Shown here piece after piece: positions 6,243 to 44,669 of a stretch of 44,959 nt of DNA (position 1 is the first letter of the stretch; every line of letters begins with the position of its first letter). The stretch comes from Bacillota bacterium. Lineage in GTDB: Bacteria; Bacillota; JACPQU01. Location: assembly GCA_016190305.1 (NCBI GenBank), contig JACPQU010000121.1, positions 1-44,959 of the forward strand. The letters run 5' to 3'. The notes below the pieces were generated by a model. The model was not told where the DNA came from. It did not search any database and saw only the letters and a program-made list of their open reading frames with translations. Position numbers and translations under genes: made by a program.

Positions 6243-9200
6243 TCACCCCTTTCCGCCGATGCCGGCCTCGAGGGCCTCGTGCGCCCCGACCAGCAGATCG
6301 GCGTGCGGCGCCCTGCGGATCCCTTCCTTCAGCACCTCCAGCGCCTCTATCCGCCGCTCCGCCTCTGTCAGGCAGGCCGCTAGGGAAGCGTAATAGGGGG
6401 CGTGATCGGGCTGCAGTTCAAGGGCCCTCCGCCAGAAGTCGGCCGCCTCCTCGTGGAAGCCCCGTTCCGCGGCAATCTCTGCCAGGAGGGCGCAGGCCTC
6501 GCCGTCGTAAGACCCTGATTCCAGGGCTTTCAGCAGTTCCTCCGCCGCCGACTCCCGGTAGCCATGCCGGCCGTAGATCTTGCCGAGACGGAGATTGCGC
6601 TCTTCGTCAGGAACACCGAATACGGTCAGAAGACGGAGCGCACATCCGAAAACATCGAACTCTTTAAGGATCAGCAGCCTCTCCAGGACTCCCCAGACCG
6701 CCTCCCGGATCCCCGGTTCGGCCGTCTCCCGGATCTGCGATCCGCCCACCTTTCCCTTGGTAACGCCCTGCCTGGCTCCGTTGAGACTCTCCTTGGAACC
6801 GGACAGATCCTCCCCACCGATCTGACCTTCTCCATTTGATGCGCTTGCAACCTGGAAGTCGCCGCGCTCGAGGATTTCAACCAAAACGAGGTAGGCCTCC
6901 GCTTCCGGCCCGTTCCCCTCTTCCTCGGCCATGAGCAAGGAACGTCTGGCAAGGTCCCGGCGGCCGGAGAGCATCTCGCACAGCCCTTTCCCCACCAGGG
7001 CCTCCGCAAACCCCGGGCTGGAAGAAGGCACTGACGTGAACTCGGCGGATCCCTCTGCATATCTTCCCATCAGCGTATAGACGTGTCCCCTGACCAGCCT
7101 GAGCCGAGACCCGGAGGCTCCCTCCGCCCAGCGGCCGGCTGCCGAGCAATCTCTCCGGGCCCGCTCGGTACAATCCAGGGCCTCCTCGGCGTAACCCTCC
7201 CCGGCCAGGACCAGCGCCAGCTCAGTAAAGAACGCCGGGTTGGGCCCGGGCACCAGGCGTTCCAGGAAGGCCAGCACCTCTTCCACCCGGCTTCCCGCCA
7301 GCAACAGGCGGGTAAGCCTGATCAAGGCCCAGGTCCAGTTGGGTTCCGCACGCAGGGCCTGGGTGTATGCCCGGCAGGCATAGGGTGCGTCCCCCAGGGC
7401 CTCGCAGCACTCCCCGAGCCCGTGCCAGGCACGGAAGGTGCCCACCCCCCTCTGGGTAACGTAGTTCAAGGGGGCTTCGCCGAGGGATAAACACTCCCGG
7501 AAGGTTTTCTCCGCCTCGGTATAGCTGTTGAGGTTTTGGAAAACCAGGGCCCGAAGGTAATAAAGATCCGTATACGCGGGATAAGCCTTCACACCATCGG
7601 CGAGCACCGACAGGGCTTCCTGGTAACGTCCCAGGGAGCGCAGGCAAAGGGCGATGTTCCGCACCAGGAGCGAGGCGTAGGCCATGTCGAGGGATCCCAG
7701 GTACTTGAAGGACTGCTGGTAGTGCCGGAGCGCGACCTCCGCCTCCCCGAGCCTGGTGTACTCCACGCCCAGGTTGAAGTGGAGAAAGCTGTCCCGCGGC
7801 TGGCGTTTCTCCTGGGCCTTGAGAATCTCCAGGTTCCGCTGGATCTTGGCCTTCTCCCGGGTGGGCCGGTTGAGATACCCGTAGTGATTGATCCGGACGG
7901 TGGAAAACCCGATCCTGCCCCCGTTCTGCTGGACGCTGGGCACGATCTGCTCGTGGAGGGTCCCGCGGAACCTGTACTCCAGCCGGTTGCGAAAGAGGCG
8001 GAAGGTGGCGTTGATCACAGCCTCCGCGCCGGGGGTTTCCCCGATGAAGTTGATCTCGTTCAGGTAGTGGCCCTCAAGCCCTTCGTCGTAGAGGAGGTCC
8101 CGGAGCCGGAAATGATCCTCGCCGACCAGTTCCTCGTCGGCATCCAGGAAGAGGATCCAGTCCCCCGACGCCTTTGACAGGGAGGCGTTCCGGGCGGAAC
8201 TGAAGTCCCCATGCCAAGGGATCCGGTAGACCTTGGCCCCGTAGCGCTCCGCCGTCTCGACCGTCCGGTCGGCGGAACCCGTATCCACCACGATGATCTC
8301 GTCCACCACCCCCATCACGCGGTCCAGGCAGCGCGGCAGGTTGTCCTCTTCGTCCCTGACGATCATGCAAAGACTCAAGGCGGGACGAGCCGGGTCGCTC
8401 TTCGTACGGGGGACCCCGGTGGCAGCAAGGGGCCTCCCGCCATCCGTCCCGCTCGTTCCCGCACCGGCGGCGGGCATCCTGATGCCTGCCGGAGACATCC
8501 CGGTTCGGACGGGAGGCATCGCGCTCAGAGCGAGAGACGCCCCCGCATCGGCTGAAACCCGAGGATCTTCGCGATAAGCCCCGGGGCGCTGCGTCCAGCA
8601 CCACGGCCGCGGCCCCATGACCTCTTCCCAGAGGGCCCGCTCCAGGCGATCAACCACCCTGTCCCATCGATAAGCCGCCACCGAACCGGGGGCCGCCTGG
8701 GCCAGCCGGTTCCGGAGAGCTCCGTTGCTAAGAAGCCGGCGCAGGGCCTCCGACATGGCCGGCACATCCCTGACCGGAACCACGAGGCCGTTCACGCCGT
8801 CGCGCACATACTCGCTCACCCCCGGGGTCGCGGTGGTGATCACGGCGGTACCGCAGGCCATGGCCTCGGCGACGGGGAGGCAGAAAGACTCGTAGTAGGA
8901 AGCGCTGACAAGGATATCGGCGGAACGGTAAAGCCCTCCCAGTTCCCCGGGATCGGGATTGACCGCCACCCGGAGCGGAAAGGGCAGGGCCGGAAGACGA
9001 TCCGGCCGGGACGGAGTCACCCAGACCACTTCAAATTGCTCACCGGATGCCGCCGCCGTCTCCAGGGCCTGAAAGGCCTCCTGAACCCCCTTGAAGGGGA
9101 ACTCCGCCCTGGCCACGAGGAGCACCCGCGGACGGCTCCGCCGGACCTTCGGACGTGGATAGAAGTGATCGTGGTCGATGGCGCTGCCCAGGTTGACGGC

Positions 9201-11810
9201 GGCCCGCCCGTAGCGCCCGCCGATGATCTCCTCCAAGGCCCTGGAGATCACGTGGATGGACACCGGGGCCTCGTGTACCCGGTCGGCCACATGTTGCACC
9301 CGGTGGCTGTAACCCCTCGTCCGGAGACCGGCTTCGTTCTCAAACAGGTATCGATCACCCTGGGCCAGGTAAACCGGGACTGCCCCGGGAACCAGGGCCA
9401 GCTCGTGAAGCTGGGTCCAAAAGGAGGCCACGAGGACGTCGCATAAACCGCAAAACTCGGCCAAGCCGGTGGAAAGGGGCACCTGGAAGAACTCCCCCTT
9501 CAAGGGAAACCACCGGGGGCTACCGAAATGGGAGAGCACCCTGACCGAATGCCCTTTCTCCTGAAGGCGGTTGACGTGCTCGAAGAGGACCCTGGCCCCG
9601 CCGGTGAGACCGGTCCCTCCGACCAGGCAGGCCACCTGGAGGGAAAGACCCAGCCGGAGAGCCGTTTCTACCTTGCGGGCCCGCCAGATTTCCAGCGAAA
9701 ACGGGTTAAAGAGGCGCCGGTCGGCTTCACTCGCGCATCCGGCCGCTTCTTCCGAAACCAGTCTTATACTGACCATGGCGGCCTTGTCGTCCGGGTTCCA
9801 GGCCAGGGCCCTCCGGTAGAACACCTCCGCGTCTTGGAGTTCACCCAGGATCACCCTGGCATCCCCCAGGGCCACCAGGACCCGGGCCAGGCCCCATCCC
9901 CCTCCGAAGGATACCCGGAAGCCAGGGCCGCCGGCGCTATGTGACCTGCAGTTCTCCTCGATCATCCCGGCCGCTTTCTCCAGCGCTCCGGCCGCTTCCC
10001 GCGTTCTTCCGCAGGCCAGGAGAGCCAGCCCCAGGTTATAGTGGAAGCCTGGTTCCTTTTCGGTATCTTCATGCCCGGCCAGGCTGGTCAAGCTCTCCAG
10101 GGCATCCCCAGCCCGGCCGTCCAGAAGCCCGGCTGCCGCCTTCTCAATTTCTTGATCCGCCGGGCTCATGGCCGACCACCGTTCTTCCTGAGCGAGGATT
10201 TCCCGGGAAAGGAGGATGTCCCCCAGCCTGGAGGCCACCTCGTTGATCTCCTCCCCGGCCATTCCCTGATCTCCGCTTACCCGCGAGTGGCCGCCTGCTT
10301 CCGCTTCACCGCCGCTTGTAACCGGACCGCCGGCCTCTTCCACGTTGCAGGCGGCACCGGCCCCGGCGATTTCGGCAAATTCAACGACCTCTGCAACCTC
10401 AACAGCCTCAGCAAATTCAGGGACCTCGGCGACCTCTCCGCTCTCCTTCTTGGTTGGAACCTCTCCGGGATCGCCGGCTTCCCCGAACTTTTCGGTTCCT
10501 CCAGCCAATTCGGTTTCTCCGGCCTCTCCAGCCTCCCCGGTCTCTCCGGCCGCTCCGCTCTCTTTCTCCTTGTCTGCCTTCCCCGCTTCGCCGGCTTGCC
10601 CGGAACTCCGGAGCGCTTCCCCGATCAATCCATCCATCGCCTCCCATCGTGCCTGCCAGGAATTTCGCTCCGCGAAGGCCCTCCGCTTGCCGCAGGCATC
10701 TTCTCCATCTTCCCGGATGGCCCTCTCCGCAGCTTCAATGAAACCTTCAACCCCCTCAGCGGAGTACCACAACGGTGTCCTCACACCCAGGTCCGGGATC
10801 CCGGAGATGATCACCGGCTTCCCGCAAGCCAGATACTCGTACAGCTTGATGGGGTCCGCCGCCCCGCTCAGGCGACCGCCCTTGAAAGGGATGGTCGCCA
10901 CGTCGAAGGCTCCGATATATGAAGGGAGTTCCTCGTGGGGTTTGCGGCCCAGCCAGGCAACGTTCCCCGGGAAATGCCCCTGGGGAAGAGGGACCAACAG
11001 GGGACCGACGACAGCGATGCTCCAGTCCGGCCGGGCGAGGGCGACCTGCCGGATCATGTCCAGATCCACCCAAGAGGCGACAGCTCCTGCGAAACCGATT
11101 ACCGGCGGCTTGAGGGACCTCATGTCGGCGGGGGCTAAGGCCCCTGGAACAAACTGGGCCGGGTCCACGCCGTTGGCGACCAGGTGCACATGCGGGTTAA
11201 AAGGGGCCTTCTCCAGCCGCAATCTCTCCGAGGTGGTGATCACCAGGTCCGACTCGCGCAGAATGATCTGCTCCGTGCGCTCCGCCGCCTCCTGGTACTC
11301 CGGAGGGAAGAATTGGGCCAGGTCGTCCACGCAGTCGAAAACCGTCGCCCGGCTGCCCAGCTTTCCTATGCAGTTCCACCATCCCAGCCAGTAGATCACG
11401 GTGACGTGATTCCGCCAGCCCAGACGGGCCAGGACCTCGCGGAGGAAAGAAATGGTCAAATCGTAGATCCCCGTGGAGAGATCGGGCAGTTCCATCTTCA
11501 CCTGCCGCACCGGGTCCAGGACGCGAAGGTTCGGCCCAACCCGGAGGAGGAACCGATCCAGACCTTCTCCCGCCAGGGCCGACTTCAACTTGTCCCAGGC
11601 CCGGTCCGCCCCGATCATGCCGGCGCGCTCCCGCCCGGCGTCTTCCACGTTAAAGGGCGCAGGCGTGGAGTTCACGTACAGCACAGGGTGGCCCGAGGCG
11701 GCGAAAAGGGACATCAACTGCTGGGGGCGCTGCCACAGGTCATTCCAGTCGATCGAGCCCAGGCAGATCACCTCGTAGGGGTATTCGACCCGCTGCTTCT
11801 TTCTTGCCAC
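6243..11810 (-). CDS. 1855-aa multidomain protein: GT-B glycosyltransferase, acidic repeat linker, TPR, GT1/GT4 glycosyltransferase, GT2 (GT-A) glycosyltransferase, long TPR array. Putative flagellin glycosylation enzyme.
   Basis: One uninterrupted ORF. GTG start with AAAGGGGTG upstream; the stop is 6 nt before fliD. Approximate domains by motif: aa 13-400 (nt 11774-10610) VICLGSIDWNDLWQRPQQL...FDCVDDL; aa 735-1085 (nt 9605-8555) ...SYYESFCLPVAEAMACGTAVITT..EYVRDGVNGLVV (GT1 EX7E region); from about aa 1142 (nt 8385 downward) LSLCMIVRDEEDNLPRCLD..IIVVDTGSADRT..LFLDADEEL (GT2 DxD). The GT2 domain is followed by many TPR-like repeats. Confidence 0.9.
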   Translation of the reverse strand: MARKKQRVEYPYEVICLGSIDWNDLWQRPQQLMSLFAASGHPVLYVNSTPAPFNVEDAGRERAGMIGADRAWDKLKSALAGEGLDRFLLRVGPNLRVLDPVRQVKMELPDLSTGIYDLTISFLREVLARLGWRNHVTVIYWLGWWNCIGKLGSRATVFDCVDDLAQFFPPEYQEAAERTEQIILRESDLVITTSERLRLEKAPFNPHVHLVANGVDPAQFVPGALAPADMRSLKPPVIGFAGAVASWVDLDMIRQVALARPDWSIAVVGPLLVPLPQGHFPGNVAWLGRKPHEELPSYIGAFDVATIPFKGGRLSGAADPIKLYEYLACGKPVIISGIPDLGVRTPLWYSAEGVEGFIEAAERAIREDGEDACGKRRAFAERNSWQARWEAMDGLIGEALRSSGQAGEAGKADKEKESGAAGETGEAGEAGETELAGGTEKFGEAGDPGEVPTKKESGEVAEVPEFAEAVEVAEVVEFAEIAGAGAACNVEEAGGPVTSGGEAEAGGHSRVSGDQGMAGEEINEVASRLGDILLSREILAQEERWSAMSPADQEIEKAAAGLLDGRAGDALESLTSLAGHEDTEKEPGFHYNLGLALLACGRTREAAGALEKAAGMIEENCRSHSAGGPGFRVSFGGGWGLARVLVALGDARVILGELQDAEVFYRRALAWNPDDKAAMVSIRLVSEEAAGCASEADRRLFNPFSLEIWRARKVETALRLGLSLQVACLVGGTGLTGGARVLFEHVNRLQEKGHSVRVLSHFGSPRWFPLKGEFFQVPLSTGLAEFCGLCDVLVASFWTQLHELALVPGAVPVYLAQGDRYLFENEAGLRTRGYSHRVQHVADRVHEAPVSIHVISRALEEIIGGRYGRAAVNLGSAIDHDHFYPRPKVRRSRPRVLLVARAEFPFKGVQEAFQALETAAASGEQFEVVWVTPSRPDRLPALPFPLRVAVNPDPGELGGLYRSADILVSASYYESFCLPVAEAMACGTAVITTATPGVSEYVRDGVNGLVVPVRDVPAMSEALRRLLSNGALRNRLAQAAPGSVAAYRWDRVVDRLERALWEEVMGPRPWCWTQRPGAYREDPRVSADAGASLALSAMPPVRTGMSPAGIRMPAAGAGTSGTDGGRPLAATGVPRTKSDPARPALSLCMIVRDEEDNLPRCLDRVMGVVDEIIVVDTGSADRTVETAERYGAKVYRIPWHGDFSSARNASLSKASGDWILFLDADEELVGEDHFRLRDLLYDEGLEGHYLNEINFIGETPGAEAVINATFRLFRNRLEYRFRGTLHEQIVPSVQQNGGRIGFSTVRINHYGYLNRPTREKAKIQRNLEILKAQEKRQPRDSFLHFNLGVEYTRLGEAEVALRHYQQSFKYLGSLDMAYASLLVRNIALCLRSLGRYQEALSVLADGVKAYPAYTDLYYLRALVFQNLNSYTEAEKTFRECLSLGEAPLNYVTQRGVGTFRAWHGLGECCEALGDAPYACRAYTQALRAEPNWTWALIRLTRLLLAGSRVEEVLAFLERLVPGPNPAFFTELALVLAGEGYAEEALDCTERARRDCSAAGRWAEGASGSRLRLVRGHVYTLMGRYAEGSAEFTSVPSSSPGFAEALVGKGLCEMLSGRRDLARRSLLMAEEEGNGPEAEAYLVLVEILERGDFQVASASNGEGQIGGEDLSGSKESLNGARQGVTKGKVGGSQIRETAEPGIREAVWGVLERLLILKEFDVFGCALRLLTVFGVPDEERNLRLGKIYGRHGYRESAAEELLKALESGSYDGEACALLAEIAAERGFHEEAADFWRRALELQPDHAPYYASLAACLTEAERRIEALEVLKEGIRRAPHADLLVGAHEALEAGIGGKG
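10340..10620 (-). repeat. Low-complexity acidic Glu/Ala/Gly/Val repeat linker inside the glycosyltransferase megaprotein (approximate bounds)
   Basis: Encodes GEAGKADKEKESGAAGETGEAGEAGETELAGGTEKFGEAGDPGEV..EVAEVPEFAEAVEVAEVVEFAEIAG. Imperfect nucleotide repeats are visible. Confidence 0.7.
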
Positions 11811-18193: not shown

Positions 18194-19125
18194 CGGGAAG
18201 AACCGTCCTCACCGAGACCGCCTGCGTCAGCGCCGTCCCGGCCACGCCGCCAGCCGCCGACGGGCGTCATCGCCACCTCACCGCTTTCCTCCAAGAAGGT
18301 CAGCCTGATGTCCCTGAGTTCATCCTGGACAAAGAGATAACCCCATCCCACCGTGGCCCTCACCCCCGGGTGGATGCGGGCCCCATCGATCCAGCCCCTC
18401 GCACCCCTGGCGAGGCGATCCCGGATCTCATGTTCCCTCGCTTCCAGCCCCCCGAGGGCGGCAAGGAGGGTCAGCCGCTCCTTGACCTGTTCCAGCAAGC
18501 CTCCCCTCTGGTCGGGACCGAGGGTCCCCGCCCTCTCCCTCTCCTTGAGCACTGCGATTGCCTCTCCGACAAACTTCAATTTTGCCTTGGATCGTTGCGC
18601 CTCGTCCCGGAGAGCATACAGCTCTTCCCGAAACTCCGGCAGGACGCCGACCTCCAGGATCGTGGCCGTAGCGAGGGCCGACCCGATCTCCCGGGCCGCG
18701 AGGTGGAGTCCCGACCTCACGCTCCCCCCGACCAGGAGCCCTTTCCCGGAGGTGACCCGGATCCACCCGTTCACCGAAAGCTCACAGTGCATCACCGATT
18801 CCGCCTCCAGGTTTCCCCCCACCGATACCCTCACGTTCTCAAGGAACCTGGCACGGAGCGAACCGGCGGCCTTGATCTTTCCGGTCGAGCCTCCCCTGAT
18901 GCCTCCCCCCACCGTTACCCGCCCGCCGGATTCAAGGGCGCTGTCCTCCACCATCCCCGCCACATTGACATCACCGGCGGCAACCAGGACACTCCCCATC
19001 CGCAGGGAGCCTCCGATCCGGACCGGCCCGTCGTGCCGGCAGGGGGATTCGCGGGGACCCAGGTCTCCGGCCAGTTCCATCAAGCCATCCTCGCACCATC
19101 CGGATGCCCGCTCGACCGTCACCAC
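18190..19125 (-). CDS. FapA / DUF342 family protein (short form, 311 aa)
   Basis: Beta-helix-like repeats (VAAGDVNVAGMVEDSALESGGRVTVGGGIRGG..IKAAGSLRARFLENVRVSVGGNLEAES) followed by a coiled coil (LRDEAQRSKAKLKFVGEAIAVLKERE). Overlaps the sigD stop by 7 nt. A DUF342 gene after sigD is common in Firmicutes. Confidence 0.8.
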   Translation of the reverse strand: MVTVERASGWCEDGLMELAGDLGPRESPCRHDGPVRIGGSLRMGSVLVAAGDVNVAGMVEDSALESGGRVTVGGGIRGGSTGKIKAAGSLRARFLENVRVSVGGNLEAESVMHCELSVNGWIRVTSGKGLLVGGSVRSGLHLAAREIGSALATATILEVGVLPEFREELYALRDEAQRSKAKLKFVGEAIAVLKERERAGTLGPDQRGGLLEQVKERLTLLAALGGLEAREHEIRDRLARGARGWIDGARIHPGVRATVGWGYLFVQDELRDIRLTFLEESGEVAMTPVGGWRRGRDGADAGGLGEDGSSR

Positions 19126-19916
19126 AGGACATCCTCCAGCGCCCCAAGACGGCCCCTCAGCCTGAGCACCGCCTGGCTGTGCAACTGGGAGATCCGCGAC
19201 TGGGACACCTCGAGGACGGCGGCCACCTCTTTGGCCGTCAACCCCTCGTAGTAGTAGAGGGTGAGCACCAGGCGCTCACGTTCCGGAAGGGCCGCGATCG
19301 CCTCCGCCAGGAGCCTTTTTCGATCCTCGAACTCAGCAATGGCTTCAGGAGCGGGAGAGTTCGTATCGGGGATCCCGTCGATCACCCGGACCGGCTCGCC
19401 GTCTCCCCCTTCCGATTCCGGCCAGAGCTCGTCCAGTGAAATGAGGGCGCAGGCACTCAGCTTGCCTAGGATTTCCCTCAGCTTCTCGACGGTGACCCCC
19501 AGTTCCGCGGCCACCTCTTCCTCCGATGCCGGCCGCCCCAGGTGCTGCTCCAGCCCGGCGTAGACTTTTTCCAGTTGCCGTGCACGGTACCGCACGCTGG
19601 ACGGGATCCAATCCAGGGAACGCAGGCCGTCCAGCATTGCCCCCCGGATCCGGGCCAGCGCATAAGTCTCGAAACGCGCTCCCCGCTCCCATTCGTAGCG
19701 TTCGATGGCCTCCATCAGGCCGAAAATCCCCCAACTGAAAAGGTCCTGCGTCTCGATGTGAGGCGGCAGACCCATGGCCAGGCGCCCGGCCACGTGCTTC
19801 ACCAGCGGCACGTGTTGGAGGATGAGCTTTTCACGCAGGTCCGGATCGCGGTTGCGCTGGTACTCCGCCCACTTGTCTTTGCTTCTGCTGACCACTTCTT
19901 CCAGGATCTTGACCAA
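19119..19916 (-). CDS. fliA: Flagellar sigma factor sigma-28 (FliA/SigD/WhiG family)
   Basis: Region 2: LILQHVPLVKHVAGRL..DLFSWGIFGLMEAIERYE..FETYALARIRGAMLDGLR. Region 4: LPERERLVLTLYYYEGLTAKEVAAVLEVSQSRISQLHSQAVLRLR. Confidence 0.96.
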   Translation of the reverse strand: MVKILEEVVSRSKDKWAEYQRNRDPDLREKLILQHVPLVKHVAGRLAMGLPPHIETQDLFSWGIFGLMEAIERYEWERGARFETYALARIRGAMLDGLRSLDWIPSSVRYRARQLEKVYAGLEQHLGRPASEEEVAAELGVTVEKLREILGKLSACALISLDELWPESEGGDGEPVRVIDGIPDTNSPAPEAIAEFEDRKRLLAEAIAALPERERLVLTLYYYEGLTAKEVAAVLEVSQSRISQLHSQAVLRLRGRLGALEDVLW

Positions 19917-19943: not shown

Positions 19944-20771
19944 TCAGCGTAGTCCCATCCGTTTCTGCCTCACCTCCTCGTGGAAAACGAAGTGCACCAA
20001 GCGGTCCTCCAGCCGCGGCGGCACATCCTGAAAGGATAGGGCGAAGGCGGTGACCCCGCCCGACCCCGCTGGATCCCCGACAGCCCGGAGGACCAGGGCT
20101 GCGAGTTCAACCGGTTCCGGCTGGAACTCGAGCCGGAGGCGCAGACGCGCGCCCGGTGCCAGAATTGCCCCGGTCAGGATGCATGCCCCGCCGGCGCTGA
20201 GGTCCCTGGTGGTCCCGCGCTCCAGCAGAAGCGCCCCGGGCAGGTCGGCGCCGAAGCGCACCGGAATCGATACGTCCACCCGAACGTGCTGTCTCCGCTG
20301 GATGCGGATGTGAAATTCCGGCCGGCTCATGGCCACCGCGGGGATCGGTTCCCGAACCTGTTCCACCAACCGGGTCTCAAAATTGTACCTGGCAACCCGA
20401 TCCGCATAATCCACCTTCACCGGGGACCCCGCCGGCCCCAGATCCACGACCTTACCCCTGTTCAGAGGAGCGCTGAAGAGGATCACGTCTTTCTCCAGAT
20501 TCTCCACCCGGCACAGGAAGCGAATCCCTTCCAGCGCCTCCTGTTCCAGAAAAACAGCCTGTCCGATATCCATGGGAGGACTCCCCTCCACGGCTTCCGG
20601 GGATGGCAGCGACGGTCCCGCATGCTCGAGGGCCTCCTCGATCTGTTCGTGCTCCCCGTTTTGGCTTGCGTGTTCAATGATCCGGCCTTCGTCCTCCCCG
20701 GTGCCCGGTTCATCTCCGCGCCGATCCGGTCGGGGAGATGCTTTCCTCAGCAACCCCAGCCCCTTGAGCAT
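19944..20771 (-). CDS. PilZ-domain c-di-GMP receptor, YcgR/MotI(DgrA)-like (PilZN plus PilZ)
   Basis: Canonical RxxxR (QRRQHVRV, about nt 20283-20303) and D/NxSxxG (TRDLSAGGACI, about nt 20186-20210) motifs. The track ORF extends to 20816. The ATG at 20771 has GGGAGGGGG 7 nt upstream; the ATG at 20573 is an alternative start. Overlaps the flhF 3' end. Confidence 0.85.
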   Translation of the reverse strand: MLKGLGLLRKASPRPDRRGDEPGTGEDEGRIIEHASQNGEHEQIEEALEHAGPSLPSPEAVEGSPPMDIGQAVFLEQEALEGIRFLCRVENLEKDVILFSAPLNRGKVVDLGPAGSPVKVDYADRVARYNFETRLVEQVREPIPAVAMSRPEFHIRIQRRQHVRVDVSIPVRFGADLPGALLLERGTTRDLSAGGACILTGAILAPGARLRLRLEFQPEPVELAALVLRAVGDPAGSGGVTAFALSFQDVPPRLEDRLVHFVFHEEVRQKRMGLR

Positions 20772-22098
20772 CCCCGTACCCCCTCCCGTCATTGAACATT
20801 GAACTCTCGAACGCACTGATGCCGTCTTGGAAGGCCTGGGGCCCGGCCGGACCTTTCAACCGGGTTTCCAGGCCGCAGATCCTCTCCCCCAACCGTCCCA
20901 GGATGATCCCAGTGTCGGCCGGCTGGAGATCCTCACCGATTCTCCTGCCGGAGGACAGGTAGTAAACCGGGCAACCCAGGGCTCCGGTGAGATCGAAGAG
21001 CAGGTCCGCCCACCTCAAGGTCTCATCCAAACGGGTGAGGACGATCCCCTGGACCCCGGCCGGCTTGACGAACGAGGACCAGGCCTCTGCGCCGGCCTCG
21101 AAGGCAATCGTGCCGGGCAACACGAGGAGGGAAAGATCCGTGGGGAGCTTCTCCAGGAAAGCCCCCAAGCGGCCCAGTTCGTGGGGGTTGAGGGGGGAAC
21201 ATCCGGGTGTGTCCACGATCACGGCATCCACCCCCTCCCACCTCTCCAGCAGCGCGGGGATTTGACCCGGGTGAAAAACCTTCCGGGCCGGGATCCCCCT
21301 GAGCCCCGCTTCTCGAACCACGAGGGAGGAGCCGCGGCGTCCCGCCGGATCGAGTTCCATCAGGGCGACCCGGAGACCCAGTTCGTTTCGGAAGTGGGCG
21401 GCCAGGCCGAGGGCCGCCGTGGTCTTTCCGGTGCCGGCGGGCCCGACCAGGGTAAGAATAAAGCGGCGGCCCCGCTCGGGTCTGGGAGGGTCGCCGACAA
21501 GCAGTCCCCGGCACTCGTCCGGTTCCGCCGTTTTTGTACCCGTTTCCGCGGGCTTTCTGTCCGATGCCATATGCTTCACATGCCCTCCGGATGGCTTCAG
21601 TCGCGTTTCGGCGGATTCCATATCCGCGGATTCCATGTCCGATCCGGCGGATTTCGCACCGATCTCGTGGCGTACCCCTTCGTGCCCGCGACCAACCGAG
21701 ATGAGCAGGTCTTCGAACGGAAAGGGTTGGACCCCGCTGCCGGGAGACGAGCCGTTGCCGGGCAGATGCCTTTCGCCGCTTGAACAGCCCTCATCGGGCA
21801 AGTCCCCGCCCGGCGGCGACCCCTCCACCAGGACGTTCAGCCCACCGTGGGAATATCCGCCGGACTGTTCACCGGATTTCCCAGCGGACTTGCCACCGGG
21901 CTCCGCATCCGGCTTGCCTCCTGGCCCTTCCTCATCCACCCCGGCGACCACCTCGACCAGGTTCCGGCCGAGCAGCCCATCCACGCCGCCGGACCGGGCG
22001 CTCCTGGCGTGCAGGATCACCGCCTCCGGGCCCATCTCCAGCCTGACCATCCGCACCGCGTCTTCCAGGGCGGAAGCCCTGAACTTCTTGACCCTCAA
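20710..22098 (-). CDS. flhF: Flagellar biosynthesis GTPase FlhF (divergent)
   Basis: N-terminus MRVKKFRASALEDAVRMVRLEMGPEAVILH (FlhF B-domain start). SRP-type G motifs GPAGTGKTT, DTPG and TRLDET. TTGA start/stop overlap with flhA. Confidence 0.88.
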   Translation of the reverse strand: MRVKKFRASALEDAVRMVRLEMGPEAVILHARSARSGGVDGLLGRNLVEVVAGVDEEGPGGKPDAEPGGKSAGKSGEQSGGYSHGGLNVLVEGSPPGGDLPDEGCSSGERHLPGNGSSPGSGVQPFPFEDLLISVGRGHEGVRHEIGAKSAGSDMESADMESAETRLKPSGGHVKHMASDRKPAETGTKTAEPDECRGLLVGDPPRPERGRRFILTLVGPAGTGKTTAALGLAAHFRNELGLRVALMELDPAGRRGSSLVVREAGLRGIPARKVFHPGQIPALLERWEGVDAVIVDTPGCSPLNPHELGRLGAFLEKLPTDLSLLVLPGTIAFEAGAEAWSSFVKPAGVQGIVLTRLDETLRWADLLFDLTGALGCPVYYLSSGRRIGEDLQPADTGIILGRLGERICGLETRLKGPAGPQAFQDGISAFESSMFNDGRGYGDAQGAGVAEESISPTGSARR

Positions 22099-26729: not shown

Positions 26730-27917
26730 CTAACTGAAACTGCCCACCAGGGATTGCACCACCAGGTGCCACCCGTCCACCAGGACGAACAGGAGAACTT
26801 TAAACGGGAGGGAGATCATCACCGGGGGCAGCATCAGCATTCCCATCGACATGAGGGTGCTGGCCACGATCATGTCGATCATGATGAAGGGAACGTAGAT
26901 CATGAATCCGATCTGGAAGGCGGTCTTCAACTCGCTGATCACGAAGGCCGGCACCACCAGGTGGGTGGGTACCTGGTCGGGTCCGTCAGCCTCCTCGATC
27001 CCGCCCATGCCCATGAAGAGGGCCAGGTCCTTCTCCCTGGTCTGGCGCAGCATGAAACCCCGCACCGGCTCCGACGCCGCCGCCAGGGCGGCCTCGGAGC
27101 TCATCCCCCCTTGCAGGTAAGGCTGCAGGGCGTTCTCGTTGACCTGCCCCCAGACGGGCGCCATGACCCCAAGGCTGACGAACAGGGCCAGACCCACCAG
27201 CACCTGGTTGGGCGGCACCTGCTGGGTTCCCAGGGCGTTCCGGACGAAGGAGAGGACCACCACGATCCGGGTGAAGGAGGTCATCAGGATCAGGATGGCA
27301 GGGGCAAGGGAAAGAACCGTCAGAGCCAGCAGGATCTGGACGGCCCCCGCAACTTCGCGTGGCTCCTCGGTCGGGGTGATCCCCAGTTCCAGCCGCGGCA
27401 GGGGCAGGGGGGCGGCGTGAGCGGTTGAGACATCAATGAGTCCCAGAAGGGCCCCCGCCAGGAGGATCCCGATCAGGAATCCCAGGCAGCCCGGCCCCTT
27501 TTTCTTCACTTCCCGGCGCAACAGACTCCCCGCCTTCGCCAGGGCCTCCCGGAAGGGGGCGGACAGGGAATCGGGGATGCCGGCGCCGGCAGGGTTGGCG
27601 GCGAGGTCATCGCCGGGACCATGGCCGATTTCCGTGCCGGGACCCTCATCTGGGTCCATCCCCTCCAACTCCTCCGGAGTCAGGGTCGCAAGCAGGTTCA
27701 CCCTCCGGTCCGATACCCCCAGGAGCAGGAGCCGCCGGGCCCCCACCTGCGCCAGGCACAGGCTCTTACCCGGGCCGAGGGGAGTGACCTCGCGGATCCT
27801 GATATGGCGGCCGCCGGACAACCGGCGCAACCGGTGCCCGAGGCCCCGGGCGGTGAAGTAGGCCAGGCCGATGATCAAGACGGAAAACAGCAGGAACTTT
27901 GCCAGATCCCAGGCCAA
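26730..27917 (-). CDS. fliP: FliO-like N-terminal module fused in frame to FliP
   Basis: aa 1-95: one TM helix plus IREVTPLGPGKSLCLAQVGARRLLLLGVSDRRVNLLATL (FliO/FliZ-like). Then a linker, a second hydrophobic signal-like helix, and FliP core motifs (LTVLSLAPAILILMTSFTRIVVVLSFVRNALGTQQVPPNQVLVGLALF ... FKTAFQIGFMIYVPFIMIDMIVAS). Confidence 0.9.
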   Translation of the reverse strand: MAWDLAKFLLFSVLIIGLAYFTARGLGHRLRRLSGGRHIRIREVTPLGPGKSLCLAQVGARRLLLLGVSDRRVNLLATLTPEELEGMDPDEGPGTEIGHGPGDDLAANPAGAGIPDSLSAPFREALAKAGSLLRREVKKKGPGCLGFLIGILLAGALLGLIDVSTAHAAPLPLPRLELGITPTEEPREVAGAVQILLALTVLSLAPAILILMTSFTRIVVVLSFVRNALGTQQVPPNQVLVGLALFVSLGVMAPVWGQVNENALQPYLQGGMSSEAALAAASEPVRGFMLRQTREKDLALFMGMGGIEEADGPDQVPTHLVVPAFVISELKTAFQIGFMIYVPFIMIDMIVASTLMSMGMLMLPPVMISLPFKVLLFVLVDGWHLVVQSLVGSFS

Positions 27918-27988: not shown

Positions 27989-29173
27989 CTAGAGAACCTG
28001 CTCCAGTTGCCGTTTCGAGCTCAGGATCTCCGTGATCCGGACCCCGAAGTTCTCATCGATCACCACGACCTCGCCCCGCGCCACGATCTTGCCGTTCACC
28101 AGCACGTCCACCGCCTCTCCCGCCAGCCGGTCCAGTTCCACGATGGAACCGGGGCCGAGGCCCATGACCTCCCTCAACTGCTTCCGGGTGCGTCCCAGTT
28201 CGACCGTGACCTGGAGCGGAACATCCCACAGGAGATCGATGTTTCCGGCAGGCGCAGCTTGCTCGGCCTGCTCCCCCAGGGGCCGGTACTCCACCGGAAA
28301 AACCTGAATGCGGGACTCTTTTCCGGCTTCATCCGGGTCCCCGTCAACTCCCCCGGCGGCCCACGAGGGAAGGATGAGCTGCAGGGCGGCGGAGGCTCCC
28401 CCCGGGAACTGGAGCCGGATCCACAGGGAGCAGCGATTTTTGGCGGAATCAGAAAACGGTTCAATGGGGGAATCGAAGACGGAACCGGCCGGGGCAGAAC
28501 CACCGATGGGACCGCCAGGGGAGTCGCCGTTCGCATCACTGTTGGAATCATCGTTGGAATCCCAGTCGGCACCGGATGAATCATCGGAGAAACGATCCGG
28601 CGGCCCGATCTCCGCCAGGGCGCCGGTGCCGGCGACCGTGATCCGCATGCCTGTTTCAAGGCCCAGGGTCCTGATCCCCTCGATGATCAGCCTTTCCACG
28701 GCCTCGCCAAGGGCGGTCTTCCCGGCCTCCCCGAGCCCGCTCCCATCATTTCCCCGCCTCCCGTCTTTACCCAGGAGGGCCCGAACCAGCTTTTCCGCCT
28801 CCGGCACCGGCAAGAGCCACGGGATGTCCCCTTCCCACTCGCCCCTTACCGAAACGGCGCCCTGGAAATGCGGCATATCCCGCAAAGCCGCTGGATGCTC
28901 AGCCGAATGTTCCGCCTGATGCCCCGCCTGATGCCCCGCCTGATGCCCCGCCTGATGCCCCGCCTGATGCCCCGCCTGATGCCCCGCCTGATGCCCCGCC
29001 TGATGCCCCGCTGGATGCCCAGGCTGATGCCCTGCCGGAAGCTCTGCCGGCGCCAACCCCTCCACCCGGGCCGTGACGCCTTTCCCCAGAACGGCAGCCA
29101 GGTCCCGCAAAGCCCTGTTGAAGGCTGCCTCAAGCAGCCGGGCCGGATTCTTCAACTGTCTGTCCAAGCCCAT
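27989..29173 (-). CDS. fliY: Flagellar switch protein FliY/FliN (degenerate CheC-like N-terminal part plus C-terminal FliN/SpoA domain)
   Basis: C-terminus NIDLLWDVPLQVTVELGRTRKQLREVMGLGPGSIVELDRLAGEAVDVLVNGKIVARGEVVVIDENFGVRITEI, which is FliN. The track ORF (to 29479) overlaps fliM by 328 nt in an R/G/P-rich shadow frame. The realistic start is ATG 29173 or TTG 29167, with GGGAGGG upstream. Confidence 0.9.
   Translation of the reverse strand: MGLDRQLKNPARLLEAAFNRALRDLAAVLGKGVTARVEGLAPAELPAGHQPGHPAGHQAGHQAGHQAGHQAGHQAGHQAGHQAGHQAEHSAEHPAALRDMPHFQGAVSVRGEWEGDIPWLLPVPEAEKLVRALLGKDGRRGNDGSGLGEAGKTALGEAVERLIIEGIRTLGLETGMRITVAGTGALAEIGPPDRFSDDSSGADWDSNDDSNSDANGDSPGGPIGGSAPAGSVFDSPIEPFSDSAKNRCSLWIRLQFPGGASAALQLILPSWAAGGVDGDPDEAGKESRIQVFPVEYRPLGEQAEQAAPAGNIDLLWDVPLQVTVELGRTRKQLREVMGLGPGSIVELDRLAGEAVDVLVNGKIVARGEVVVIDENFGVRITEILSSKRQLEQVL
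28897..29028 (-). repeat. 12-bp in-frame tandem repeat: 7 perfect copies of gccccgcctgat plus degenerate flanking copies, encoding (AGHQ)8 and variants
   Basis: Perfect copies span 28921-29004. Variants lie at 28897-28920 and 29005-29028. Protein reads PAGHQPGHPAGHQ(x8)AEHSAEHPA. Confidence 0.97.
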
Positions 29174-30126
29174 CCCTCCCTTGCTTGATCCTCTTCGTCG
29201 ACCGCCTGGGTTGCCCCGGTGATCCGGAACCCAAGCCTCCTCCCCAGGTGACCCGGGCGGGCCGTGAACTTGCTTCTTCCGGCCACCAGGACTTCCAGGT
29301 CGCGGTCCCACCGGTTGTCCAGCCTGAGCACGTCGCCCAGCCTGAGCTCGGAAAACTCCCTCATGGAGAGCTGGGTCTTGCCGAGAAGAACGATCATCGG
29401 AACGTGGACCCCGGAGACCCTGTCGGAGAGGGCCTGGGCGGCCTTTCCGGGAGACTCTCGAAAGTCCCCCGTGATCCACTCCTGGGCGGTGAGGCGCGGC
29501 AACACCGGCTCGGCCACCTTGAAGGGGAGGCAGAGGTGCATGGCCCCGCTGTAATCCCCCACCAGCACCGAGAAGGAGATCACCGCGACGATCTCGTTGG
29601 CCGGGATGAGCTGGGCCACCAGGGGCGATGTCTCCAGGGACTCCAGCCGGGGGGAGAGCCGGGCGATCCTCCGCCAGGCCTCCACGAAGGTATCCAGGCT
29701 GCCTTCCAGGAGCTTCTCCAGGACCGTTTTCTCGATGTCGGTGGCCGGCCGCAGCACCGGCGGGTACTGACCGGGCCCGCCCATCAGCCGGTCGATGATC
29801 GGAAAGGCGATCCCGGCGTCGAGCTGGAGCAGCACGTTTCCGGGGAGGGGCGGGAGGCTGATCACCGCCACGGCTGCCGCCTTATCGATGGTCTTGGCGA
29901 ACTCGTCGTAGCTCGCCTGGTTCACCCCCAGGACGTTGACCTGGCACAGGGCGCTCAAGCGACCCGAGAAATGGCTTGCCAGGAGGCGTCCCAGGTTCTC
30001 GTGGAGCATGTAGAGGGTGCGCACATGGTCCTTCCCGAACTTGTCCGGGCGGCGGAAGTCGTAGCCGCGGACCATCTTGCGGCGTGAAGTCTTGCCGGTG
30101 GCATGGACGGCCTCCAATGGTTGCAC
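29152..30126 (-). CDS. fliM: Flagellar motor switch protein FliM (short N-terminus)
   Basis: VRGYDFRRPDKFGKDHVRTLYMLHENLGRLLASHFSGRL and downstream FliM/SpoA features. GTG start. There is no in-frame upstream start before fliL. Confidence 0.93.
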   Translation of the reverse strand: MQPLEAVHATGKTSRRKMVRGYDFRRPDKFGKDHVRTLYMLHENLGRLLASHFSGRLSALCQVNVLGVNQASYDEFAKTIDKAAAVAVISLPPLPGNVLLQLDAGIAFPIIDRLMGGPGQYPPVLRPATDIEKTVLEKLLEGSLDTFVEAWRRIARLSPRLESLETSPLVAQLIPANEIVAVISFSVLVGDYSGAMHLCLPFKVAEPVLPRLTAQEWITGDFRESPGKAAQALSDRVSGVHVPMIVLLGKTQLSMREFSELRLGDVLRLDNRWDRDLEVLVAGRSKFTARPGHLGRRLGFRITGATQAVDEEDQAREGWAWTDS

Positions 30127-30197
30127 CCCCTGTCCCTTCTCGACTCTTACCCGACTCTTGCCCGACCCTTGCCCGGGGCGGGCCCTCGCGCCCCGCC

Positions 30198-30632
30198 CTA
30201 CTGCACGACCAGGTCGGTCAGGAACACCCGCAGGGCTCCTTCCGCCTCCATCAACTCTCCGATCCGCTCCCCGATACGGCGGCTCATACCCGACTCTCCG
30301 CCGGGAGCCTCCAGCTCCGAACTGAACATCTCGCGGAGAGTTCCTAGGATCACATGGCGGATCTTGGGCTTGATCCCCTCCAACTTCGAGGCCTCGGCGG
30401 CTCCGCCCGGAATCTCAACCACCACCGAAACCTTGATCAGGCGCCGCCCCCCCGGATCGGCCAGGTTCGTAACGAAACTTCCCAGATCGACCATCACCGG
30501 CTCCGGAGGCGGACCCGCCTCGGCCAGGGACGGATCGGCCTCCTTGTTCATCAACCAGTAGGCGCCGGCCCCCCCGCCGAGGATCCCCAGCGCCAGGACG
30601 GTCACCAGGGCCCGCTTCAGAAATCGCTTCAA
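30198..30632 (-). CDS. fliL: Flagellar basal body-associated protein FliL
   Basis: One N-terminal TM helix, then VDLGSFVTNLADPGGRRLIKVSVVVEI...IRHVILGTLRE...FLTDLVVQ, the typical FliL pattern. Confidence 0.9.
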   Translation of the reverse strand: MKRFLKRALVTVLALGILGGGAGAYWLMNKEADPSLAEAGPPPEPVMVDLGSFVTNLADPGGRRLIKVSVVVEIPGGAAEASKLEGIKPKIRHVILGTLREMFSSELEAPGGESGMSRRIGERIGELMEAEGALRVFLTDLVVQ

Positions 30633-44489: not shown

Positions 44490-44590
44490 TCTTCCGTCGG
44501 TAGCCCGGCCATCCTTACGGATCCGTGGCTTTGCGCCCCCGCCTTTCGACGGGTTTGCCTTTTCGGGAAGCTCCCACAACGTGCTTCAGT
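44490..44590 (-). promoter_or_regulatory. c-di-GMP-I (GEMM-I) riboswitch aptamer
   Basis: Minus strand AAAAGGCAAACC-CGUC-GAAA-GGCG-GGGGCGCAAAGCC-ACGGAUCCGUAAGGAUGGCCG-GGCUACCGACGG. Hallmark GEMM-I blocks are present: GCAAACC, a GNRA-capped hairpin, GGxCGCAAAGCC, and 3' GGGYUACCGAYGG. Compare V. cholerae Vc2 as I recall it: GGGCAAACCAUUCGAAAGAGUGGGACGCAAAGCC...GGGGUUACCGAUGG. Confidence 0.8.
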
Positions 44591-44640: not shown

Positions 44641-44669
44641 ACTGTAGACTATGTTTTGACAGTTGTCAA
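44641..44669 (-). promoter_or_regulatory. SigmaA-type promoter of the flgB operon
   Basis: Minus strand TTGACA (44669-44664), 17-nt spacer, TACAGT (44646-44641). An A/T-rich tract (AATTTTTTAGAGGAAA) lies upstream. The implied leader is about 230 nt and contains the riboswitch. Confidence 0.6.

Follow-up and report, generated by a model that had tools for sequence, protein, structure and literature searches.

A Bacillota flagellar gene cluster whose FliM and FliY lack the EIDAL peptide, in a genome where no chemotaxis operon is found

The DNA analyzed here is contig JACPQU010000121.1 (C86), a stretch of 44,959 nucleotides, hereafter the window, from a metagenome-assembled genome (MAG) of a Bacillota bacterium (GCA_016190305.1; 1.89 Mb in 204 contigs, 78.8% complete, 1.4% contaminated). 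The genes in question are fliM and fliY, which encode two proteins of the flagellar C-ring. One minus-strand flagellar regulon fills almost the entire window. It starts with a promoter-like site and a cyclic di-GMP (c-di-GMP)-I riboswitch, followed by flgB/C, fliE-K, flgD/E, motA/B and fliL, and continues with fliM, fliY, a fused fliO::fliP, fliQ/R and flhB/A/F. A PilZN-PilZ gene, sigD, a FapA-family gene, a rod protein gene, flgM, flgK/L and the flagellin gene come next, and the regulon ends with the gene of a 1855-aa glycosyltransferase, fliD and fliS. From flgB to fliS, every gene is an intact open reading frame (ORF) with a strong family match, including the stators, flagellin, cap, sigD and flgM, and the flagellar gene set in the window, from flgB/C through fliD and fliS, is complete. 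The nearest FliM matches are proteins of Symbiobacteriia and Thermaerobacter (~40-48% identity), a similarity that would place the lineage in deep Bacillota near these two groups; all 40 relatives available for it are akin to the MAG at the phylum level only. The switch genes and their immediate surroundings are as follows.

30198..30632, minus strand: fliL
30127..30197, minus strand: fliL-fliM spacer of 71 nt; it contains an 11-nt repeat and a GC-rich hairpin, and the GTG is preceded by a purine-rich stretch that resembles a Shine-Dalgarno sequence
29152..30126, minus strand: fliM, 324 aa, with FliM and FliMN_C domains and a GGPG motif, without an N-terminal EIDAL/LSQxEIDxLL peptide
27989..29173, minus strand: fliY, 394 aa, with a FliN (SpoA) domain at the C-terminus and a predicted CheC-like fold whose ExxN sites are degenerate, without an EIDAL peptide
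28912..29036, minus strand: 12-nt tandem repeat within fliY, 10.4 copies with 92% matches, in frame and encoding a His-rich (AGHQ)n tract

CheY binds the EIDAL motif (PMC6946799), and the same motif is necessary and sufficient for FlhG binding (bioRxiv 10.1101/2022.04.21.489128). A first, sequence-only reading of the window had proposed that FliM starts only 17 residues before its conserved block, that no start exists upstream and that the docking peptide is missing, and our analysis bears this out. The fliM ORF at 29152-30126 is the longest reading possible, since it opens on the first start codon after a stop. This GTG at 30126 lies 21 residues ahead of YDF and 17 ahead of MVRGYDF, with a TTG at 30117 as the alternative start. 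The N-terminus, MQPLEAVHATGKTSRRKMVRGYDFRRP, contains no LSQxEIDxLL peptide in the 21 residues ahead of YDF, and no EIDAL-like motif occurs in the stop-to-stop frame upstream, which reaches into fliL. The fliL stop at 30198 leaves no room for a longer FliM; it is followed directly by the GC-rich hairpin of the spacer, which also carries the 11-nt tandem repeat in 3.2 copies (30141-30175 and 30176-30197, minus strand). The remainder of the protein matches the FliM models. Pfam FliM (PF02154) matched residues 22-212 at model positions 1-192 (E = 1.3e-49), FliMN_C/SpoA (PF01052) matched residues 236-304 (E = 1e-17), and the NCBIfam fliM_switch model TIGR01397 scored 245 bits against a cut-off of 219.6, aligned from model position 26 with the N-terminal part of the model unmatched.

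A six-frame regular-expression search of the whole 1.89-Mb MAG for LSQxEIDxLL-like peptides returned 0 matches, whereas a similar expression recognized such a motif in 26 of 28 parsed FliM proteins of relatives. Since fliM and fliY are the only two genes of the genome with a SpoA domain, there is no spare FliN that could carry the peptide. A longer FliM, or a peptide in another frame, was thus ruled out, as neither a start nor a motif was found in the window or the genome.

FliY begins with MGLDRQLKNPARLLEAAFN at 29173, and its frame further upstream overlaps fliM. The EIDAL peptide is absent from this protein as well, as the first reading had also held. The gene caller of the source annotation skipped the repeat and placed the fliY start at Met100 (295 aa, P0071), which is probably too short. 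The C-terminal FliN/SpoA domain was readily recognized (PF01052, E = 8.6e-26; TIGR02480, 106 bits, over the cut-off; PDB 1o6a, E = 1e-30) and is 67-68% identical to Thermotoga maritima FliN in Foldseek alignments. It was also the only match in FliY: Pfam, NCBIfam and PDB sequence searches gave no CheC domain, the NCBIfam FliY model did not match the CheC-like part, and a search with residues 1-290 returned low-complexity matches only. We therefore turned to structure prediction. An AlphaFold2 (AF2) model built from 120 homologues, with a mean predicted local distance difference test score (pLDDT) of 58 and 70-88 in the folded parts, comprises a helix (residues 10-29) and a strand (34-42), both at pLDDT ~70, a disordered stretch (42-96), the rest of a two-lobed alpha/beta domain and the FliN domain. 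A Foldseek search with this model matched residues 10-270 to T. maritima FliY (4hyn) and to CheC (1xkr), with template modeling (TM) scores of 0.65-0.66 on the target, and further retrieved CheX and whole FliM. The middle domain of FliY is thus CheC-like by its predicted fold only. Alignment of both switch proteins to Pfam, which the first reading had proposed, accordingly recovered FliM and FliMN_C, and CheC was seen only by AF2 and Foldseek.

As the FliY model opens on helix 1 of the CheC-like domain, it has no tether. A MAFFT alignment set FliY ARLLEAAFNRALR against the EIDAL peptide of homologues. We rejected its reading as a degenerate tether because AF2 assigns this segment to helix 1 of the CheC-like fold and because the N-x22-P spacing of CheC is preserved; ARLLEAAFNRALR may nonetheless have originated as a remnant of a tether. 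The CheC-like domain, as read from the sequence, is without its E-x2-N phosphatase motifs, both sites being altered. Site 1 reads E15-x3-N19, with the N19-x22-P42 spacing intact, and site 2 reads GEAVE (E-A-V-E), with Glu in place of Asn, which agrees with the earlier remark that FliY shows no clean ExxN motifs. The (AGHQ)n tract forms the loop modeled as disordered, residues 42-96, between strands 1 and 2 of the same domain.

The sites at which chemotaxis genes might be expected, between fliY and fliO and ahead of sigD, are bordered by the following genes.

26730..27917, minus strand: fliO::fliP as a single ORF, beginning 71 nt past the fliY stop
20710..22098, minus strand: flhF, an SRP54-type GTPase gene, with no flhG after it
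19944..20816, minus strand: PilZN-PilZ (YcgR/MotI-like) putative c-di-GMP receptor gene, with RRQHVR and DLSAGG motifs
19119..19916, minus strand: sigD/fliA sigma factor gene, directly after the PilZ gene, with no cheB/A/W/C/D between

Because fliO::fliP begins after a gap of 71 nt, there is no slot behind fliY for cheY, which occupies this place in Bacillus-type operons. At the other site, flhF runs into the PilZN-PilZ gene, which is followed by sigD, with no cheA/W/B/C/D. No che gene was found in the window and no receiver domain on C86, so that the absence of che genes from both sites, noted before, was confirmed. A search of the whole genome for these genes had been suggested. In the assembly, with its completeness of 78.8%, an assembly-wide domain search detected no MCPsignal (the signaling domain of methyl-accepting chemotaxis proteins, MCPs), CheW, CheA dimerization or CheC domain and no CheY-like gene. 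The sole CheB and CheR domains of the genome belong to one 1453-aa hybrid kinase frame with a receiver domain (C188:28566-32924, plus strand), and we rejected them as a chemotaxis operon since all of these matches lie inside that kinase. Receiver domains number 20 in the genome, and three are in small frames, none of which was accepted as CheY. The first adjoins a KaiC-like ATPase gene, the second is Rcp1-like by eye from its sequence, and the third is a contig-edge fragment, NarL-type by eye. At C90:5202-7494 (plus strand), the gene of a stand-alone receiver protein (~131-143 aa) precedes a 141-aa ORF, behind which lies a KaiC-like ATPase gene.

FlhG, the second partner of EIDAL, was overlooked by the sequence-only reading and is also missing from the MAG. 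None was found in the assembly, which is 78.8% complete, and its deviant-Walker-A ATPases are MinD and Mrp only.

To place these absences in context, we turned to relatives within the phylum. In a one-per-family sample, CheW was present in 31/31 other FliM-bearing genomes, and in about two-thirds of these 31, CheA/CheW lay on the contig of fliM, 4-56 kb away. A short FliM homologue (P0049) led to the genome G041, which has the same cluster layout and whose 30 relatives were then added; in total, 57 flagellated genomes were read at the N-terminus of FliM and at that of the SpoA gene following it. Every genome with che genes (49/49) retained at least one peptide, G064 having only the degenerate VTAKEIGKLL. 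In G007 (Thermaerobacter-like), G045, G060 and G061, a short FliM is without the peptide and an LSQEEIDALL-type peptide is found on FliY/FliN only. Four genomes have no peptide at all: the MAG, G041, G042 and G068. The last three combine a short FliM with a peptide-less FliY/FliN, as in the MAG, and in all four neither CheA nor CheW nor an MCP was found, and flhF or flhA is not followed by FlhG. FlhG is present in G007, G045, G061, G069 and G071, and absent from the cluster in G041, G042, G043, G057, G064 and G068, with flhF also missing in G064 and G068. Fisher's test on the co-loss gave p ~2e-4 to 8e-4, values that are overstated because the relatives are not independent. In a FastTree phylogeny of FliM, which is indicative only and whose branch supports are not shown, the four peptide-less genomes fall at two or three places, G041 with G042 and the MAG with the chemotactic G045 and with G068.

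In the complete genome G007 (G007:C1:1200629-1216629), the gene after fliM encodes a protein that starts with MLSQEEIDALL, and has a low-complexity linker in place of a CheC-like domain. A degenerate receiver-like ORF follows this gene.

Two further features of the window lie upstream of flgB, and one of them, the riboswitch, belongs with the PilZN-PilZ gene to a c-di-GMP layer.

44641..44669, minus strand: sigma-70-like promoter, TTGACA-17-TACAGT, upstream of the riboswitch
44495..44568, minus strand: flgB-leader aptamer of a c-di-GMP-I riboswitch (GEMM-I; GGC variant model RF03167), scoring 71.3 bits where the gathering score is 59

Both the riboswitch and the PilZ protein had been recognized in the first reading, and the searches upheld them. 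Between the riboswitch and flgB, a hairpin (AGGCCTACCTC...GAGGTAGGCC) is followed by a T-rich tract at ~44479-44430. The PilZN-PilZ protein matched PilZN (PF12945, E = 9e-9) and PilZ (PF07238, E = 4e-14) and fell below the NCBIfam YcgR equivalog cut-off. Since its longest ORF overlaps the end of flhF, translation probably begins at a start codon further downstream. Five GGDEF proteins are encoded in the genome. By homology, the GEMM-I riboswitch and the terminator-like hairpin would probably attenuate transcription through the flgB leader at high c-di-GMP, and the YcgR/MotI-type PilZN-PilZ protein, co-encoded with the motor and intact in its binding motifs, would probably act as a brake or clutch.

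Our preferred explanation is that the C-ring has lost its N-terminal EIDAL tether from both possible carriers, FliM and FliY. This tether is the high-affinity dock for phosphorylated CheY (CheY-P) and for the MinD-like ATPase FlhG, neither of which was found, and the motor most likely turns without chemotactic switching input. We consider it quite probable that the cluster is an intact Bacillota-type regulon with a C-ring that lacks the tether on FliM and FliY, with the partners CheY and FlhG missing and with a motor that receives no chemotactic input. With similar confidence, the loss appears to be real rather than an artifact. The missing peptide shifts the balance toward a real loss because no sampled genome that bears che genes lacks the peptide entirely. 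Given the completeness of the assembly and the one or two che loci of relatives, che genes are likely absent from the organism itself. We infer rotation bias, spontaneous switching and braking all from the genes, and the bacterium, judged in this way, probably swims without steering.

Several observations weigh against this explanation. The MAG is incomplete, and a single che operon could have remained unassembled with a prior of ~0.05-0.2. G007 carries its entire che system at a single MCP-CheW-CheA locus, 1.3 Mb away from fliM, and the che systems of G045 and G060 are at two loci each. The completeness of G041, G042 and G068 is not reported. G043 (G043:C56) has no CheA, CheW, MCP or cluster FlhG and yet carries peptides on FliM and FliY; this exception could be due to gaps in the assembly, to a loss that happened recently or to a third partner that binds the peptide. 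Because G043 retains both peptides, the link between peptide and partners is not absolute. Finally, a PilZ gene occupies the same position, between flhF/flhG and sigD, in chemotactic relatives. PilZ is therefore no evidence of a replacement mechanism, and we dropped the idea that it replaces che control. The interpretation of the sequence-only reading, that the motor may be mainly under c-di-GMP, is supported as far as the missing peptide and che genes are concerned; control by c-di-GMP is an ordinary layer still in place, and not a demonstrated substitute for chemotaxis.

The same incompleteness leads to the most serious alternative, namely that the organism is chemotactic, that a compact MCP-CheW-CheA-CheY operon lies in the 21% of the genome left out of the assembly and that CheY-P acts via lower-affinity sites in the FliM middle domain, FliN or FliG. 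That an entire che system can sit at one locus distant from the flagellar cluster, as in G007, speaks for it. Such an organism would, however, differ from all 49 che-bearing genomes, which keep a peptide (one of them degenerate) on FliM or FliY/FliN, whereas the MAG has none in any frame; moreover, the searches would have had to overlook four domain families (MCPsignal, CheW, CheA dimerization and CheC) as well as a CheY-like gene. We regard this alternative as unlikely. A second alternative, that the cluster is a relic or does not serve swimming (secretion-only, adhesion or a non-motile cell) and that the peptide was lost in a general decay, is more improbable still. Immotility in culture is known for some relatives (Geochorda, PMC11456536) despite their full sets of flagellar and chemotaxis genes, and a microsatellite has expanded within fliY. 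However, decay is hard to reconcile with the intact ORFs and strong family matches from flgB to fliS or with the close similarity of the FliY FliN domain to that of T. maritima, and the fliY repeat remains in frame in a loop modeled as disordered. That the short N-termini are artifacts of a wrong start, a frameshift or misassembly is scarcely credible: the shorter FliY start of the source gene caller and the repeats near the starts of both genes are outweighed by the upstream stop that closes the FliM frame, by the absence of the motif from every other frame and by G041, G042 and G068, which independently show a short FliM with a peptide-less FliY/FliN.

With the loss of the tether as the preferred explanation, the cluster can be compared with known systems. 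Its gene order, flgB ... fliL-fliM-fliY-(fliO)fliP ... flhA-flhF ... sigD, is that of the Bacillus subtilis fla/che operon, and the composition of FliY from CheC-like (here predicted) and FliN domains is shared. In contrast to B. subtilis, FliM and FliY of the MAG are without EIDAL, no cheY follows fliY, the ExxN motifs are degenerate, flhG is missing, cheB/A/W/C/D are missing before sigD and a PilZ gene takes the flhG/che position. The switch also resembles that of the Thermaerobacter type (G007, G045, G060 and G061; T. marianensis FliM, P0042), in which a short FliM without the peptide is 33-47% identical to MAG FliM; PilZ also precedes sigD in G007, G045 and G061, the position being not resolved in G060. 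Unlike the MAG, these genomes have the LSQEEIDALL-type peptide on FliY/FliN along with CheA, CheW and MCP, and G007, G045 and G061 have FlhG. The predicted fold of MAG FliY residues 10-270 is like that of T. maritima FliY (4HYN) and CheC (1XKR), but the MAG domain is missed by hidden Markov models, both of its E-x2-N sites are altered and a 44-residue (AGHQ)n loop is inserted.

For the c-di-GMP layer, the flgB leader of Clostridioides difficile provides the model, with a GEMM-I (Cd1) riboswitch and a terminator. The MAG leader shares the GEMM-I aptamer and a terminator-like hairpin, and it differs in that its best Rfam model is the GGC variant, with a putative ligand preference. The PilZN-PilZ protein resembles the YcgR/MotI (DgrA) brakes or clutches in its domains, in its place in a flagellar cluster and in the RxxxR and DxSxxG motifs; its motor target is putative.

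Two other genes of the window deserve mention. In the fliO::fliP ORF, FliO corresponds to residues 20-89 and FliP to residues 199-390; fliO and fliP are two genes in G041, and G061 has a long (388-aa) FliP ORF. The 1855-aa protein, encoded at window positions 6243-11810 (minus strand) between the flagellin gene and fliD, combines GT4 and GT2 glycosyltransferase domains with TPR arrays.

Bacteria that have flagella but no chemosensory genes have been described as very rare; the first of them was Aquifex aeolicus, and 14/69 flagellated Actinobacteria are of this kind (PMC10746217). The MAG shares with Aquifex the complete set of flagellar genes, and in its assembly, 78.8% complete, no MCP, CheA, CheW or CheY was found. 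It belongs to another phylum, and in the MAG the missing che genes go along with a FliM and a FliY without the EIDAL tether and with the absence of FlhG from the assembly. A literature search for Aquifex or Thermaerobacter FliM stated to be without the peptide found nothing. The arrangement reveals no new mechanism and is probably of a kind that is rare but already known, the Aquifex type. What it adds, from the genomes compared, is that loss of the tether on both C-ring proteins accompanies loss of both known partners, CheY and FlhG, within one phylum. Tentatively, and with somewhat less than even confidence, we propose the generalization that the tether is kept only while CheY-P or FlhG exists, so that its total loss marks chemotaxis-blind flagella; the MAG, G041 with G042, and G068, as separate lineages of thermophile-related Bacillota, would then have been converted independently, leaving c-di-GMP, through the riboswitch and PilZ, as the sole visible input.

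The MAG would add a Bacillota lineage to the flagellated bacteria without a chemosensory pathway, for which the use of motility is described as an open question (PMC10746217). Where the peptide is lost from both proteins, such motors could be recognized simply by sequence in metagenomes, and the natural tether-less variants of FliM and FliY could be used to test the part that the tether plays in switching and in the control of flagellar number.

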